From: an uncultured bacterium
GTDB taxonomy: Bacteria; Babelota; Babeliae; Babelales; Babelaceae
DNA length: 64,000 nucleotides
Assembly (NCBI GenBank): GCA_963848965.1
Contig: CAWKFG010000004.1
Location: 64,001-128,000 of the forward strand
Direction of reading: 5' to 3'
Of the stretch, positions 21,001 to 36,000 are shown one piece after another (the first letter of the stretch is position 1; every line of letters starts with the position of its first letter). The position numbers are program-made.

Positions 21001-24000
21001 TATGCCACTAGCATCTTACGTAGATATTTGACTTTTTAGAGCTATAAATCATACTGGAAAAAGTAATTTCTATACTCTGCAAAAATATTATAATGACAGG
21101 CTTCATTACTAAATCGAAAGGTATAATTGTGATTACTCCTCAAAATTACAAGCAAAAAAGTGCTCGCGTAAATACAGTGGCTATCAAAGAATTGGGTAGT
21201 GCTTGTTTTCTTACTCTTGGTTGGCAAACTAAGAATGCTAAAGAATACATGCGATCATCTTCTTATTTGAAAAACTCCAAGAGTAAGCTTTGAGACAAGA
21301 CCTATTTAACAACTATTTTTTTGCTAGTTTTCTTAATAGCATTAAAAATTTTTTGCATACTATATTCCTTTAAATTAAATAGCACTGTAGAGATAAACTT
21401 TATGAATTTTAAACAAATAATATTTGTCGAATGTCAAGCGAGTAGTTTTTTATGAAATACGTTTAAGTAAAATGCAGCAATTCTTACTATTATACTATGT
21501 AAATTAATTATATATCTGAGATGAAATATTCTTAAAGCATAATACACTTAACTTGACATTTAAAAAACTTAAAGCATACTAGAAAAAAGAAAACTTGACA
21601 TCTTGTAAGATCACACAAAAAACAGCATTTTTTAATCTTGATGATAAGCTATATGCTGAAGCAGAATAGCATATACGCATAAGAAGAGCTGTAATTTTTA
21701 ATTGAAAAGTATCTGTATGTTTATAAGACAAAATATTCAATAGAAAGATTGTATCAAAGTAAATACCGTTAAGATAACCAGAGCAATAGTTAAGGAGCCC
21801 GGCAATAGCTCAGCCCTTACGCTTGGAATACTAAAAATGCTAAAGAATATATGAGAACTTCGTGTATTTGGGTGAAAAGCTAAAAATCAATAGAGGATTT
21901 ATAGACATCTTAATCATAAAAACTATCTAGTCAGTGTAGTTTAATCAAGCAGTTATATTAATCAAGGAGGGAATAAATTTAGGGGAAACTATGAAAAATG
22001 TATGTTCTTTTGTTTTAACCGTATGTCTTTTGTCTTTTCAACTGAGTAAGCCAATGGAAAAGGAGACAGCCAGAGAACAAGATATACAAGAAGACAAAGA
22101 AAACATTATATATTTAGAAAGCATTGAAGGAGAACTTGTTCCTTTATCGAGCTCATATCTTCCTCCTGCTTTTGCTTTCACAGTATCTGCTTATCCAGCC
22201 TCTCTAGTTCCTATAAAACAACCATTAGATACTTTAACTTTAGCATGTGATATCCTGCAAGCAAAAAATAAAGATATCTCTCGCCTTATCAATGATTATA
22301 TTGCAGGAGGTTACCTAGAAAGATTCAAACCTGCTCCTTTAAAGAAACCAATTAGAGATGTATTACAAAAGGTTCGTACACTCATAGAAACTCTTCAATT
22401 TCTAAAAATAAGCCAAGAATGCTTGGCCCGTACCTTAAAATACTGCCTACATAATGAACATGTACAGAAAGCTATAACGAGTAAGCTCTTTGTTTATTTA
22501 GAAAGCAAAGAAGGTACCTTGGTTTCTTTTCCGCTTCAATTTCTTCCTCCAGATTTCACTCGAAGATTACCTCAGATAAACCTCGATTTTATAGACAATG
22601 ATATCGTCATCGATTGTAATGACTACCCTACTCGCACTTTAGAGCTTGCACGCGAAATTTTGATACACTACATAGGACTTATCTCTACTACTTACAAAGA
22701 AGCTCATCAACAAGCACTATTAAACAAAGTTGAAGACTATTTGAAGACAGACTCTTCTAATGGAATCATACAAAAAGCGCAAAATCTTTTGAAATTAGTA
22801 AGGTTTCTTAGAGTAAGCCAAGACTGCTTTAACGCTCTTTTACAAAAATGTGCAGCAATAATTAAATGCGATCAAAAAGAACTTTTTTATTCTTGCGATG
22901 CTTTTCATAAAGAGATAGCAGAAGAGAATCTCAAGTCGTGTATACGACCATTAGAAGAGCAAAGCAGCTGGCATCCTTTATCCCTTCACTCTCCTCAAAA
23001 ACAGAGTCTCTCCTTTTCAGTAAAGAAGCTTGAAGATCTACTTTATATAGCTCCTCAGAAAAGAAGAGAACTTGCATTTACTATAGCACTAAAGTATGAA
23101 GATAGAAATATTCATTTGCCTGTTCAGCACCTTATTGATCACAAATCATGGCAAGCTTTAGATGTACTCTGTGGACCTAAATCAAATCCTGAATCATATT
23201 TTGCACATGCTATTGACCGTACATCAACAGAAATAGGAAAAGCGCTCTTTTATTCAAAGCTTCTACAGCCTCTTGATGCTATCCAAGAGCTCAAGAAAAG
23301 GCAATCCATTGTTCAAGAGCTTGCTGGCAACAAAGAGATCTTTGATAAGCTTGATGGGTTATTCAAAGATTTCTTTAGTGAGCTTAAAGGCAAAAATGAA
23401 CAAATGGAAGCAAAAAAATATGAGAATAATATATTAGCCTTCTTTACAGAAAACGATCCCTTTAAAGAATTACTCAAGCTTGATATCACCAATCTCAAGG
23501 GAGCCGCAAAATGGATAAACTCTAACGAGCTCATGGTAACGCTAAAAAGAGGTAAAGATATTATTCCAGATATCATTATCAATATAACAACAAAACAGAT
23601 AAAAAATATTATTCCACAACAGATTAAACAGCTCTTTGACGCGTTTATGCCTGCACTTGCTTCTGAGGCAGGCTCCTGGGCAGCTTCTCAAGCTTGGAAC
23701 TCATTATCTACAAAATTTTTTCCTGACCCTGCTCATCTATCACCACGCTTACTCCAATGGGCGGCTTCTGCTGTAAGCAAAGTACCAAAGGCACATATAC
23801 AGCAAACCATGATGCTTCTTGTTGCAAAGTTTATCTGCTCATTAACATGCTCTAGCGACGAAGATGATTTTGTTAAAGGAATGGTAGAGATGAACTTCTG
23901 TCTTCAGACAAGGCTTATATTACTTGCAAAATATATTACTCTCATGAAAAATGTCTATAATATAGTAAGCACATCACCTAAACTTAAAGAGTATCTACCG

Positions 24001-33000: not shown

Positions 33001-36000
33001 AGTCCTCTAAGCAGGCCTCTGATATGGTTTCTAAATATATAGTAAATGAAAAAATATCCTTAGGGATACCATTTACTAAGTACAAGCTACCTCAAGAGCC
33101 TTCATTCACATCTCCTATTTTTGGTGCTACACTCGGCTGGGCTTATAGCTCTTTTTTAGGAGCGCCGCACATGCTCACGGAAAGCATAATAACAACCTCA
33201 GTAATGCACGTTGTAACACACTTGCTCTATAGTGCGATGAGTGATAATAATTACAGTAGAGCAATTCAAGGATTAGCAGAGGCAAGCATATGCCTCCAGG
33301 AAAAGCTTATACTACTTTCAAAATATGTTAAATTTATCAAAGAGCTTCATACTTTTCTGAAAAATAAGTCACCAAAGCTTTTAGAGCTTATTCCTTCTTT
33401 ACAAGCTTTAGATCTAGGACAAGAAACTCCTCGTCAAAATGTATTCTCTTATTTCTGGCATTTTCCTACAGATATTACCAAGCAGTACATCTTTACAGAC
33501 GCAACGTCTTTCGAGCAGTTCATAAGTAAGCTCTGTAGTGCAACTTTTGATGAGCAAGGTAATATTTTTTCAAGGTATCATATTGGTCGTGTTATCGCAG
33601 TTTATCGCCTTGTAGATCTTCATAAAGAAAGACTTTCTGCCACTGCCACAGCACTTGCAGAACTTGACGCATATCTTTCAGTTGCACGATTGTATAATGA
33701 ATCGCAAGATAAACCAAATAAATATAGCTTTGTTAATTATGATACGTCAGAAACACCTGTTATTGATCTTAAAAACTTTTGGAATCCTTGTGTTGGATAT
33801 GATGCAGTAGCTAATACCTTAACTATGGGTATTGATAATCATCCAAAAGACCTTATAATTACAGGGCCAAATACCGGTGGTAAATCAACACTTATGAGGG
33901 CTCTTGTTTCTGCTATTTTAATGGGCCAATCATTAGGCATAGTTCCTGCACAAGAAGGATCACACATAACATTATTCTCAAATATACGCGCATATCTTAA
34001 TATAACTGATGATTCGTCGCTAGGTCTTTCTTTATTCTGGGCAAGTGCTAGGCGAGCTAAAGAGCTTTTAGAGGCAGCACAAAGACCAACAGGCCATTCA
34101 CTTACACTTTTTGATGAGATATATAATGGAACTGCTCCGAAAATAGGCGAATCTTTAGCCTATGGCACCCTTCTATTTATGACCGATAGCAATCATTGTC
34201 CTCGAAATATATGTATAACTACGACTCACTATCCTTTTGTACAACAATTACGAGAAGAGATAGATACCAAATGTGCTTATTATAGAATAAGCGATAAAGA
34301 AGATTCTGAAAATCGCTATAAACTTTTACCAGGTATTTATACAGAGTCCAACGGCCTTACTATTGCTCAAGAAGTAGGACTTAACGATGAAATTAGTAGA
34401 AACTCAAAACACTACTGTGAGCAAAAATACAAAAATAGTAATCTTAATTGCTTATTTAAGCCAGAAGCTCTCTTAAATACCTGTAAGGAAGAAGGGTTCA
34501 TATTCCTTATGAAACTTATAAAACAGAGCGAAATGAGAGCTTGGCTTCACGAGTTACTTTTAACAGCACCTTATGGCTATCATTTAGTAGAGCTAGCAAT
34601 AAAGCATGCAGTTAATCTCAAGTCATTCCTCAATCTTACAGATGATAAAGGCAGAACAGTACTTCATCGCGCAGCTATAAGAGATGCTAAAAACGGTGCA
34701 CTTATAAGCTTTCTTATCAAACAGGGAGCAAGCCTATGGATGTACGATGCTAAAGGCAAAAGGCCGCGAGACTACGCTTTACCGGACACTGTTGTCTGGA
34801 AGATATTAGTAGATGCAGAAAATACTCAAGGAACATATTTTGAGCAGCTACCTCAAGCATTAAGAGATAGACTCCAGAACTACATTACATATAATAAGAG
34901 AGCTGACGCTTTGTAATTGGTAGAAGAAATAATTTTTCTAGATACAACGATATCTTTCTGTTGGGACTTAGGAATCACGAGCTGAAGGAGATTAGCTTAC
35001 TCATATCTAGTCAACCTTCAGCTTGTTAAGTATTAAGCTTCTATTAGCTATCTAGCGCCTTTTACTAAAATAATTAACGTCTTTATTCAAGCCGATTTAA
35101 GCCTATAAATTATGCTCTATCACTTCTTAATTGGCGGTATTTCATCATTTCGTGGTTTAGCACCTGATTCCATACGGAATCCAAGGGGCCAACCCAGAGT
35201 TAATAAAGAAGCATAACCTAACTCTTTTAATTGTGCTTTTTTGCTTACCGTATTTTCATTGTTGTACGTTGAAGGTGACATGATATCTCCGTTATTGATT
35301 AAAGTAAAAATTCACTTTTTAATTCTTCCTCATCATTGTAAATCTATCATAAAGGCTTGTCAAAAAGACCCTTTGCCTTTAAAAATCTTGCTACCTAGTA
35401 ATTGCCTTATTTCATTAAAAACAGCAAATTTCTTTCTGGGATTATCCCCTAATTAAATTAGAGACAGCTGTTTATAATAGATCAACGAATAACAAGCTAA
35501 CACTGAGGGTAGCAGTTGACTTGGTTACATATTCCGCTAAAATGTTACTATATAAATTATTGTTTTTAAATACCTCTAACTTTGGATAAAAATAAATTTT
35601 ATAAAATTTCAGATGTTAAGAATTTAATCTTTTAACTCATGGAGATACTATGTTCATTACAAAAAACCATAACAACAAAAAAGCGAATGTTAAAGCGATT
35701 GGTAATGCTTCTTTAATTACCCTTGGTACTCGCGGTCACAGTGTTGAAATGGCTAAACCTATAAACTATGGTGTCAAAAGATAGTAATACGGTTAATGAT
35801 AGCAATAAATTTAATAAGGCATAGGTCACTTAATGACTTATGCCTTTACTAATTAAGAAATATGTTAATTTACTACATTATACGGTATCAACAGCTGGAA
35901 TATTTCCTTTCAAAGATAAGAATAGCTCTTGAATAAGCTCTTTAGGCAACAACTGTAAATAATTTTGTGGTCGCGTAGAATCACTGCGTTGTGCAAGAGC

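Follow-up and report, generated by a model that had tools for sequence, protein, structure and literature searches.

The MutS fold serves in more than mismatch repair: MutS2 is an endonuclease and a sensor of ribosome collisions, and MutS-fold ATPases can use non-mismatch substrates. A further subfamily, MutS8, was reportedly described by Ogata et al. (2011) from giant viruses and 'Candidatus Amoebophilus asiaticus'. In the Cardinium hertigii study of Mann et al. (2017), the MutS8-type proteins CAHE_0017 and CAHE_0267 are given predicted signal peptides, proposed as candidate secreted effectors and termed putative DNA-interacting proteins, with no predicted signal peptide reported for the Amoebophilus homologues (PMC5698495). 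Signal-bearing MutS8-type proteins are therefore a kind already known; an earlier note on the DNA considered here had found that Dependentiae and MutS together retrieve only unrelated papers, which holds by their titles, but the Cardinium report does contain signal-bearing MutS-domain proteins.

The window that we analysed is a stretch of 64,000 nucleotides from an uncultured member of the Babelaceae, a bacterium of the type that parasitises amoebae (contig CAWKFG010000004.1, positions 64,001 to 128,000). As previously claimed, a PF00488 profile search places ten MutS_V genes in the genome, namely one canonical MutS (884 aa, nt 53004-55658, minus strand; domains I-V, no signal), which served as internal control, and nine paralogues. 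From the first ATG the paralogues are 666, 685, 694, 933, 951, 1011, 1017, 1168 and 1193 aa long, so that the lower end of the earlier range of 666-1189 aa stands, while its upper end corresponds to a start at Met5 of the longest protein. At E<=0.01, Pfam finds MutS_V in all nine (E 8.4e-18 to 4.7e-30) and MutS_III in all nine, several of the latter scoring under the gathering cut-off, and finds MutS_I, MutS_II, MutS_IV and Smr in none, again in agreement with the earlier note. The paralogues are MutS-derived ABC-type ATPases that have retained the core/lever (domain III) and the ATPase/dimerisation domain (V) and have lost the mismatch-binding (I), connector (II) and DNA clamp (IV) domains. 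Walker A, the Walker B Asp-Glu pair and the Thr-His switch are intact in every one; in the 685-aa protein the P-loop spans residues 486-494 and the Asp-Glu pair 570-571, each one residue later than had been stated (485-493 and 569-570). MutS_V genes occur in all 151 genomes of the order that were searched, and the ten seen here, put forward before as the maximum, lie at the top of the range of 1-10 in the 150 others but are equalled in one of them (G018).

The MutS fold claimed for the 685-aa paralogue is borne out by an AlphaFold model built on a 26-sequence alignment (pLDDT 85.5, pTM 0.83), whose best Foldseek matches in the PDB are MutSbeta and MutS (E 7e-18). In this model the long helices 214-250 and 283-340 are predicted to form a hairpin which carries a hydrophobic stretch. 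Hydrophobic windows of 1.6 or more in the middle of the protein occur in 36 of 40 viral ORFs, in 20 of 33 bacterial homologues and in five of the nine paralogues, but in none of 12 MutS1 proteins. The replacement of the DNA clamp site at the lever tip by a hydrophobic helical hairpin, in most members, is new. Viral relatives retain the hairpin and have no signal; in P0001 and P0002, the two paralogues encoded together in the window, the hairpin is missing and the lever tip bears a long polar insert.

Trees unite the Dependentiae sequences, including the nine genes, with Amoebophilus and a viral clade (SH-aLRT 96; the viral members being sequences from giant-virus bins), apart from MutS1 and from a family of four-TM MutS-like proteins. 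Of three trees, one brings seven of the nine paralogues together as a single clade; an expansion within the lineage is thus possible, but the grouping is unstable. The four-TM family, the nearest non-viral outgroup, has two TM helices at the N-terminus and another two or three in mid-protein, a topology that puts its ATPase in the cytoplasm; one member is named from Myxococcota and some are annotated 'MutS domain V'. This placement might suggest that the paralogues are likewise cytoplasmic, membrane-tethered ATPases with a role in DNA or genome maintenance, their N-terminal segment being an uncleaved anchor or unrelated to export. The hairpin-bearing, signal-less viral members would fit such a role, and the literature on viral MutS7 and MutS8 presumes a function in genome integrity (PMC3749498). 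We nevertheless consider it improbable: a single N-in anchor with a two-helix hairpin after it would place the ATPase, like the two halves of domain III, outside the cytoplasm, the DNA-binding domains I and IV are missing in all nine, a complete canonical MutS is encoded in the same genome, and the fused modules described below, together with neighbourhoods of effector type (signal-bearing ankyrin, C2H2 and MYND proteins), are unlike those of housekeeping genes.

The N-terminal segment itself argues against an anchor. As noted earlier, all nine paralogues begin with a signal-like segment, and in five (P0001, P0002, L001p, L002p and L004p) a Met follows it directly. The segment is an uncharged run of 8-15 residues, too short for a membrane helix, after a short and mostly basic N-terminus. 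In P0001 and P0002 the Met is preceded by Pro at -1, an unusual residue there for signal peptidase I. That Met, and the tendency of T-rich upstream DNA to encode Phe, Leu and Ile, could mean that translation truly starts at the internal Met and that the hydrophobic codons before it form a 5' extension by chance. We find this artefact scarcely credible, as four of the nine lack such a Met (their next Met falls within the run itself or between 37 and about 70 residues further on), purine-rich Shine-Dalgarno-like motifs precede the first ATG and not the internal Met, and homologues from other genera retain the segment but not the Met. Moreover, among 715 signal-like ORFs in the genome, 222 have a Met after the segment, preceded in 182 by Ala, Gly or Ser and followed in 124 by Glu, the pattern of a signal-peptidase-type site and not of noise.

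By a crude hydropathy rule (not SignalP), 29 of 33 close homologues from bacteria have a signal-like N-terminus, as against none of 40 viral ORFs and none of 12 MutS1 controls. The signal is less special than had been implied: those 715 ORFs, picked out by a crude scan, are drawn from 1437, about half of the proteome, so the signal alone discriminates poorly, and for C. destructans signal peptides are given for 44% of coding sequences (PMC6561590). The assembly, which is 88.7% complete, encodes LepB and three secretins, and neither a T3SS FHIPEP protein nor VirB4 was found in it. Together, the conserved signal, the Shine-Dalgarno-like motifs and the LepB and secretin genes make export a reasonable reading. 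The earlier interpretation of these proteins as exported is partly supported: it keeps its footing in domain content, fold and a conserved signal, but is tempered by the breadth of signal-like N-termini, by the hairpin in five of the nine, which could act as a stop-transfer sequence and retain them in the inner membrane, and by the family being already on record.

P0001 (nt 21991-25497, plus strand; 1168 aa) shows by Pfam and structure searches a signal-like segment at residues 1-21 with Met22 immediately after; two predicted Skp1/BTB-like modules (nt 22096-22479 and 22480-22887); MutS_III at residues 403-760 (nt 23197-24270), which includes the polar insert; MutS_V at residues 816-994 (nt 24436-24972); and an ankyrin-like repeat at about residues 1117-1143 (nt 25339-25419). 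P0002 (nt 31335-34916, plus strand; 1193 aa) has the same layout and is 44% identical to P0001, a shade above the 43% first given; it probably starts at Met5 (nt 31347), which a purine-rich motif precedes. Its MutS_V lies at residues 840-1026 (nt 33852-34412), and its C-terminal ankyrin repeats match the AnkY model (E 2.7e-6).

The assignment of the N-terminal module rests on a predicted structure (pLDDT 77). Against 48,161 chains its top three matches were all Skp1 (Z 8.3, 8.1 and 7.6), followed by many BTB domains, Z values near 8 being within the range that the search tool calls common, so that the Skp1-like match is moderate; by Foldseek the best match was also Skp1 (E 8.9e-3), with nothing at E<=1e-3. 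The predicted module resembles the Skp1 and BTB/POZ fold, known from the adaptor of SCF ubiquitin ligases, in its beta-beta-alpha-beta-alpha core and following helices, and about 100 of its 128 residues align with Skp1 (Z 8.3, rmsd 3.6). It differs in having no sequence similarity to that fold (no Pfam match; 12-16% identity in structural alignments) and in being almost restricted to MutS-like proteins: among 1.84 billion proteins it was found in 11 others, eight of them MutS_V proteins, of which five have ankyrin repeats. A search of the genome for F-box-like sequences gave no match, and it was equally blank in all control genomes. The fusion of two such predicted Skp1/BTB-like modules and C-terminal ankyrin repeats onto P0001 and P0002 is new.

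P0001 and P0002 bracket a lasso-peptide locus, as the earlier note had recognised. Downstream of P0001, on the plus strand, lie genes for a 449-aa leucine-rich-repeat protein (nt 25531-26880), with a signal-like N-terminus, then Met, and a C-terminal hydrophobic segment, and for a 174-aa protein (nt 27211-27735), whose signal-like N-terminus leads into Met-Glu, whose hydrophobic middle is rich in Gly and Ala and whose tail is rich in Gly, Tyr, Ser and Gln. The 174-aa protein could be assigned to no family. A candidate lasso precursor of 45 aa (nt 28198-28335, minus strand), picked out by reading the sequence, carries Thr as the last but one leader residue, Gly as core residue 1 and Glu at core position 9; its leader motif resembles those of candidate precursors at another locus (G122). 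The lasso B protein (nt 28680-29429, plus; PF13471 5.6e-17, NF033537 66 bits, cut-off 33), a protease of the transglutaminase-like kind that is extended at its N-terminus, and the asparagine-synthetase-like lasso cyclase (nt 29439-31241, plus) are both without signal, so any coupling with the paralogues would be post-export or regulatory. The cyclase is separated from P0002 by 94 nt, in which no terminator-like site was found. Upstream of P0001 lies an IS4/5-family DDE transposase gene (nt 19546-20367, plus); a 273-aa ORF beside L002p (C1:401517-402338) matches this transposase in length, first 40 residues and Pfam scores.

The adjacency extends beyond this genome. At nine of 19 lasso loci in the order a MutS-like gene lies within 10 kb of the lasso B/C genes, and 14 of 45 paralogues in 16 genomes are near such loci, against about 0.9 expected under uniform placement, a comparison in which related genomes are non-independent and accessory genes may cluster in islands. 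The label "lasso-adjacent" changes four times over 12 rows, versus a shuffled mean of 11.0, with none of 500 shuffles as low. Lasso adjacency is a recurrent property, specific to certain clades, and is a new observation; the subclade of P0001 and P0002 adjoins lasso-peptide genes across families. MutS-like genes overlap the start of exporter gene D on the same strand (G094), sit between B and D (G193), follow B-C-D on a single strand (G055) or, as an open frame, overlap the end of C (G030). The four loci that have B and C with no D within 10 kb hold 2, 2, 3 and 2 MutS-like genes, and loci with D hold none or one.

These arrangements raise the alternative that the proteins are extracytoplasmic partners of lasso systems, periplasmic-side ATPases, anchored by the hairpin where present, which handle the exported peptide (immunity, sequestration or onward delivery). 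They would be powered by host ATP that an energy parasite already draws across the outer membrane, and three to four TLC ATP/ADP translocases are encoded here. To our knowledge, however, no periplasmic ABC-type ATPase is known; most genomes have MutS-like paralogues and no lasso cluster (245 of 261 genomes of the order lack a cyclase hit at E<=1e-40); and seven of this genome's nine paralogues lie well away from every lasso locus. P0001 and P0002 themselves are hairpin-free, and their ankyrin and Skp1-like modules suggest eukaryotic partners, while a D homologue (49% identical) 29 kb from the window's lasso locus makes that locus D-less only in a local sense. We therefore hold this alternative to be rather unlikely.

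The explanation that we favour, to which we would give an even chance, is that the nine paralogues are Sec-exported ATPases which act beyond the bacterial cytoplasm, probably within the host; we infer both export and substrate. SecYEG and signal peptidase I would carry the protein out of the cytoplasm by its short Sec-type signal; hairpin-free forms such as P0001 and P0002 might then exit via the secretin pathway, as might hundreds of ankyrin and LRR proteins whose signal ends in Ala, Gly or Ser before Met-Glu, and hairpin-bearing forms may remain membrane-tethered. Their action would be that of ATP-driven dimeric clamps on a non-mismatch target, most likely in the host cytoplasm, a compartment that offers ATP and in which the giant-virus homologues, having no signal, are directly made. 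The Skp1/BTB-like modules and ankyrin repeats of P0001 and P0002 may supply host-protein binding, and since their subclade stays beside lasso genes their action is probably coupled to the exported lasso peptide, although we infer the meaning of this link.

Compared with canonical MutS (MutS1), the paralogues share the core/lever and ABC-type ATPase fold, Walker A, Walker B and the His switch, and eight of the nine share the Ser-Thr/Leu-Phe start of the signature; they differ in lacking domains I, II and IV, in the replacement of the post-signature Glu-Met-x-Glu, and in having an N-terminal signal and a hairpin or insert at the lever tip. MutS2 likewise has no domain I, but the paralogues lack Smr, MutS2 has neither signal nor hairpin, and the TIGR01069 (MutS2) model gives them 39-130 bits, far under its 400-bit cut-off. 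The four-TM proteins (metagenomic, about 600 aa) also consist of domains III and V alone and have hydrophobic helices where domain IV would be, but form a separate clade (SH-aLRT 99-100) and begin with two TM helices in place of a signal. Closest is MutS8 of giant viruses, Amoebophilus and Cardinium, with which the paralogues share domains III and V alone, gene hosts that are intracellular symbionts of eukaryotes or giant viruses, and a position in trees beside Amoebophilus Aasi_0916 and the giant-virus-bin clade. With the Cardinium proteins they also share predicted signal peptides and proposed secretion, but those are called putatively DNA-interacting, whereas the paralogues are without MutS DNA-binding domains. 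What sets the Dependentiae proteins apart from MutS8 is that there are up to nine copies per genome, with Met-Glu at the predicted +1 position of the signal, two predicted Skp1/BTB-like modules and ankyrin repeats fused on, and linkage to lasso clusters.

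MutS-fold ATPases are textbook machines of DNA repair. A search of the genome with PF00488 gave 10 sites, namely the canonical MutS (window 53004-55658; domains I-V in Pfam, no signal), which served as the control, and nine paralogues, two of which lie in the window (contig C4, 64001-128000): P0001 (1168 aa; 21991-25497, + strand) and P0002 (1193 aa; 31335-34916, + strand). Both carry MutS_III and MutS_V and no other MutS domain in Pfam, and they are 44% identical, where an earlier note had given 43%. MutS_V was above its cut-off in all nine paralogues and MutS_III was found in all nine, several times under the cut-off; at E<=0.01 the mismatch-binding domain I (PF01624; 5.3e-40 in the control MutS) and the connector II and clamp IV domains (PF05188 and PF05190; both present in the control) were absent from 9/9, and Pfam gave no match to the Smr endonuclease domain. 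Every paralogue has an intact Walker A motif, Walker B Asp-Glu and Thr-His switch, and eight retain the Ser-Leu/Thr-Phe that starts the signature, the subsequent Glu-Met-x-Glu of MutS being replaced. NCBIfam models for MutS1, MutS2 and KamC match the paralogues far under their cut-offs (for MutS2, TIGR01069, 39-130 bits where the cut-off is 400). The 685-aa paralogue, modelled with AlphaFold from a 26-sequence alignment (pLDDT 85.5, pTM 0.83), matched MutSbeta and MutS chains in Foldseek (E 7e-18). Thus the earlier note was right that these proteins keep domains III and V without I, II, IV or Smr, have an intact Walker A and share the MutS fold; its count of 10 MutS_V genes also stands. In a set of 150 further genomes from the order, matches range from 1 to 10, and a single one of these genomes also reaches 10.

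In all nine paralogues the N-terminus is short and mostly basic and leads into an uncharged run of 8-15 residues, and in five (P0001, P0002 and the paralogues L001p, L002p and L004p) a Met stands immediately past the hydrophobic segment; our reading of these N-termini agrees with that made previously, of a signal-like start in all nine and Met at +1 in five. A signal for signal peptidase I would have 7-15 apolar residues in its h-region and small residues at -1 and -3; the predicted -1 residue, assigned by eye, is Ala, Gly or Cys in six paralogues, Pro in two and Ile in one. Purine-rich, Shine-Dalgarno-like motifs lie upstream of the first ATG (in P0002, of Met5) and none lies upstream of the internal Met; in the four paralogues without a Met past the segment, the next Met falls either in the hydrophobic run itself or further downstream, by 37 to about 70 residues. 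It follows that the segment is translated. We therefore reject the idea that the internal Met is the true start and the signal an artefact, on the positions of the motifs, on the paralogues and homologues without that Met and on the genome-wide Met statistics. Given its length, the segment is unlikely to be a membrane anchor.

Scored by a crude hydropathy rule rather than by SignalP, the N-terminus is signal-like in 8/9 of our paralogues (the ninth being signal-like by eye) and in 29/33 close bacterial homologues, versus 0/40 giant-virus ORFs and 0/12 MutS1 controls. The same rule flags 715/1437 ORFs of the genome, in agreement with the Phobius signals that the genome account of Chromulinavorax destructans gives for 44% of its coding sequences (PMC6561590). 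A Met no more than three residues ahead of the first charged residue occurs in 222/715 signal-like ORFs versus 68/716 scored non-signal ORFs; among those 222, Ala, Gly or Ser precedes the Met in 182 and Glu follows it in 124. These counts indicate that, across the genome, Met at +1 characterises a signal-peptidase-type site. Examples of Met-Glu at the predicted +1 in the window are found at 25531-25620, 27211-27280 and 38151-39836 (- strand), and the same pattern occurs in other genera of the order.

At the place of the MutS DNA clamp (domain IV), most members of the family carry a hydrophobic stretch; the model of the 685-aa paralogue places it on two long helices, residues 214-250 and 283-340, that form a hairpin. 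With a 19-residue hydrophobic window scoring >= 1.6 as the measure, the stretch is present in 36/40 viral ORFs, 20/33 close bacterial homologues and 5/9 of our paralogues, versus 0/12 MutS1 controls; it is lacking in P0001, P0002, L001p and L006p, and in the first two a long polar insert takes its place. Because domains I and IV are both missing, DNA binding in the manner of MutS is unlikely, judging from the known roles of those domains. That the paralogues are cytoplasmic ATPases tethered to the membrane is a reading that we hold to be improbable.

Our preferred reading is that the paralogues would be exported by Sec with cleavage of the signal, leave the cell through secretins and act in the host. 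The genome encodes one LepB, three clustered secretins and three to four TLC ATP/ADP translocases, and FHIPEP and VirB4 had no match in it (the assembly being 88.7% complete), so Sec followed by a secretin is the only export route found. The three large secretin genes lie within 8 kb (contig C4, 767000-775000), with open frames of 1153, 818 and 796 aa. Among public sequencing runs no RNA run was listed, and one soil DNA run held 0.11 of the words.

MutS8 was reportedly defined by Ogata et al. 2011, with PoV and PpV as type sequences. The 685-aa paralogue has about 30 close metagenomic relatives and is 34% identical, over 85% of its length, to Aasi_0916 of Amoebophilus asiaticus; a scan of viral contigs gave 140 relatives at 27-40% identity, mainly from giant-virus bins. 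A maximum-likelihood tree, built quickly from 65 rows and 315 columns with SH-aLRT as its only support and no bootstraps, joins the nine paralogues with Aasi_0916, a viral clade (97) and further proteins of Dependentiae in one clade (SH-aLRT 96), apart from a four-TM MutS-like family (100) and MutS1 (99); two further quick trees recovered the same clade with support of 92 and 96. Grouping with Amoebophilus and giant-virus homologues, apart from MutS1, would place the paralogues in MutS8, a label that for the viral clade leans on what PMC5698495 says of Cardinium and Amoebophilus. MutS8 is otherwise described from giant viruses (PMC3749498, PMC6459981). Within the clade, the 685-aa paralogue groups with orthologues of other Dependentiae and the 666-aa paralogue with Aasi_0916 (support 84-89). 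Seven of the nine paralogues formed one clade (SH-aLRT 95) in the 65-row tree, which might point to a lineage-specific expansion, a grouping that proved unstable, as it broke up once lasso-adjacent genes of other genomes were added. The best argument for action on the host side is that the bacterial homologues bear a signal, in contrast to the viral ones, whose synthesis takes place in the host cytoplasm and which lack it.

Some paralogues carry added modules. Residues ~36-300 of P0001 and P0002 hold a tandem pair of a ~130-aa module, of which L001p has a single further copy, and the C-termini of P0001 and P0002 carry ankyrin-like repeats. The module was modelled with a pLDDT of 77.4, its topology being beta-beta-alpha-beta-alpha and then four helices. 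When the model was compared with 48,161 chains by a method independent of Foldseek, its top three matches were all Skp1 (Z 8.3, 8.1 and 7.6, with ~100 residues aligned; Z ~8 is borderline for the tool), followed by many BTB domains, and Foldseek also put Skp1 and Elongin C first, its best E being only 8.9e-3; with moderate confidence, we take the modelled fold to be Skp1/BTB-like. Sequence searches returned little: P0001 residues 22-345 gave no usable match in the ESM Atlas, a word-based homologue search with residues 22-400 found P0001 itself and a near-identical copy in another assembly, blastp of the latter region against all genome ORFs found P0001 and P0002 only, and the module profile gave three matches, none convincing (E 3-5e-3), in 150 other genomes of the order. 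Against 1.84 billion representative proteins the profile had 12 matches, one of which is P0127, a near-identical copy of P0002; of the 11 others, eight have MutS_V and five of those eight also have ankyrin repeats, so that module, MutS III/V and ankyrin together make a rare but recurring architecture. P0127 lies on a 35.5-kb contig of another assembly, and its N-terminus differs ahead of the first Skp1-like module, with no signal as called; this could be a difference of assembly or gene calling, or a real variant. F-box-like PF12937 matched neither the genome nor the control genomes and is thus uninformative.

The neighbours of the nine paralogues are mainly signal-bearing ankyrin proteins, with a C2H2 zinc-finger protein, an ankyrin-MYND protein and IS4/5 transposases. 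Two genes from the 685-aa paralogue, a signal-bearing protein with eukaryote-type C2H2 zinc fingers is encoded at contig C1, 200583-201740 (4983-6140, - strand, of the fetched locus L017), with an ankyrin-MYND protein nearby. IS4/5-family transposase ORFs beside P0001 (window 19546-20367, +) and beside L002p (C1, 401517-402338, -) are of equal length, agree over their first 40 residues and score identically in Pfam. L005p (locus L016; C4, 639501-649600) stands in a run of four genes on one strand with small gaps or overlaps, the others being two signal-bearing proteins of no assigned family (976 and 425 aa) and an ankyrin protein of 907 aa, whose gene shares 7 nt with that of L005p.

Between P0001 and P0002 lie genes for an LRR protein, a small signal-bearing protein, a candidate lasso precursor read from the sequence (window 28198-28335, - strand), a lasso protease (B; NF033537 at 66 bits, the cut-off being 33) and a lasso cyclase (C) of the asparagine-synthetase type (Asn_synthase 3.1e-20; lasso cyclase models match under their cut-offs). 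The precursor has Thr at -2, Gly at core position 1 and Glu at core position 9, in keeping with the lasso pattern of Gly, Ala, Ser or Cys at position 1 and Asp or Glu at 7-9. As judged from these genes, the window holds a lasso peptide cluster, and the statement that P0001 and P0002 bracket such a locus is borne out. No McjD-type exporter (D) was found in window 19000-41000; an exporter homologue, 49% identical, lies 29 kb off, past housekeeping genes, at C4, 62169-63842. A promoter and terminator scan gave counts no higher than shuffles. The leader motif of the precursor (Gly, Ala/Ser, and Leu-Thr-x-Gly at the junction) is shared by three tandem small ORFs beside the cyclase of another genome of the order, G122 (L109:7686-8887, - strand). 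Three consecutive - strand ORFs at window 15767-18322, 4-6 kb upstream of P0001, the last of them (17495-18322) matching Sulfotransfer_1 (6.8e-16), may be tailoring genes or unrelated. The genome has a second lasso locus (L112; C4, 791000-798200) with a B gene, an ABC-2-type transporter pair and two copies of the cyclase gene, one per strand, that share 47% and 45% identity with P0006, one TAA being reported inside each match; no MutS-like gene neighbours this locus.

Lasso clusters do occur in Dependentiae, with cyclase homologues (E <= 1e-40) in 16/261 genomes of the order. We fetched 19 cyclase loci with up to 10 kb per side, five being shortened by contig ends, and called MutS-like genes with a profile of alignment A1 (E <= 1e-5); nine of the 19 have such a gene in the fetched stretch. 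The window locus has two, one either side of B and C, and the second locus of G246 also has one on each side. In G030 a single gene lies on the strand of C, its open frame overlapping the end of that gene; in G055 the order on a single strand is B-C-D-MutS; in G193 one gene lies between B and D; in G094 one lies on the strand of D and overlaps its start; and in G191 the genome's sole paralogue is divergent from D across a 189-nt gap. G105 has two genes upstream on the same strand and G155 three in tandem. Of 45 non-canonical MutS_V genes in the 16 genomes, 14 lie within 10 kb of a cyclase versus ~0.9 expected under uniform placement (by arithmetic, 22 kb per locus over genome size), a comparison in which related genomes are not independent samples and accessory genes may cluster in islands. 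The G105 pair (L111:9-3269 and L111:4100-7720) shares a C-terminal region of ~120 aa that matches nothing in Pfam and in which a His-Trp motif is conserved; one G105 protein starts its P-loop with Gly-Ser-Asn, and the G055 protein has Ala for the first P-loop Gly.

Lasso adjacency also follows the phylogeny. In a quick 53-row tree, several rows of which have long branches, the label "lasso-adjacent" changes four times over 12 alignable lasso-adjacent genes, versus a mean of 11.0 when shuffled, with 0/500 shuffles as low. P0001, P0002, the G030 gene and that of the second G246 locus form one clade (support 95) that spans three families of the order, and five other lasso-adjacent genes form a second, exclusively lasso-adjacent group (87); the G055 and G193 genes pair (99), and the G191 gene pairs with our non-adjacent paralogue L005p (98). 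A single ancestral linkage for all of these genes is unsupported, as they take at least three or four tree positions, several on long branches. Most lasso-adjacent MutS-like proteins also show the signal-plus-Met N-terminus. In titles and abstracts, no link between lasso peptides and MutS appeared among the matches listed, nor did any paper on Dependentiae lasso peptides.

Four loci with B and C have no McjD-type exporter in the fetched stretch, and these carry 2, 2, 3 and 2 MutS-like genes, versus 0 or 1 at loci with an exporter. A functional tie between the MutS-like proteins and the lasso peptide may be envisaged. One form of it, in which the proteins would be periplasm-facing partners of the lasso system, we consider possible but doubtful. 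In another, which we regard as a long shot, the lasso-linked genes would be copies of the target of the lasso peptide that resist it, or decoys of that target: Dependentiae lasso peptides would inhibit MutS8-type ATPases of rivals in the same protist host (for example giant viruses and other symbionts), and the cluster-side paralogues would shield the producer, a protection that could account for two or three copies at loci without a nearby exporter. Were this true, a target class would be known for a lasso family, and bacteria and giant viruses would turn out to be in conflict over one protein. Recurrent, clade-specific lasso adjacency offers a concrete experimental handle.

Returning to export and action in the host as the preferred reading, we note that this branch of the MutS fold has lost all of its DNA-binding parts, has gained a membrane-type hairpin and, in bacteria, an export-type signal, and is common to giant viruses and at least two unrelated intracellular bacterial lineages. 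Such a host-associated distribution points to a job inside the eukaryotic host.

Compared with the canonical MutS (MutS1), the paralogues share domains III and V and the ATPase motifs and are without I, II and IV; compared with MutS2, they are without its C-terminal Smr domain. Closest in kind are the two Cardinium MutS-domain proteins that Mann et al. 2017 affiliate with MutS8 and propose as secreted candidates (PMC5698495) and for which they report predicted signal peptides; the same paper gives the Amoebophilus homologues no predicted signal. MutS8-type proteins with signal peptides were thus already known from Cardinium; new here are up to nine paralogues per genome in Dependentiae, the fused architecture, the hairpin as a clade-wide property and the linkage to lasso peptide loci.
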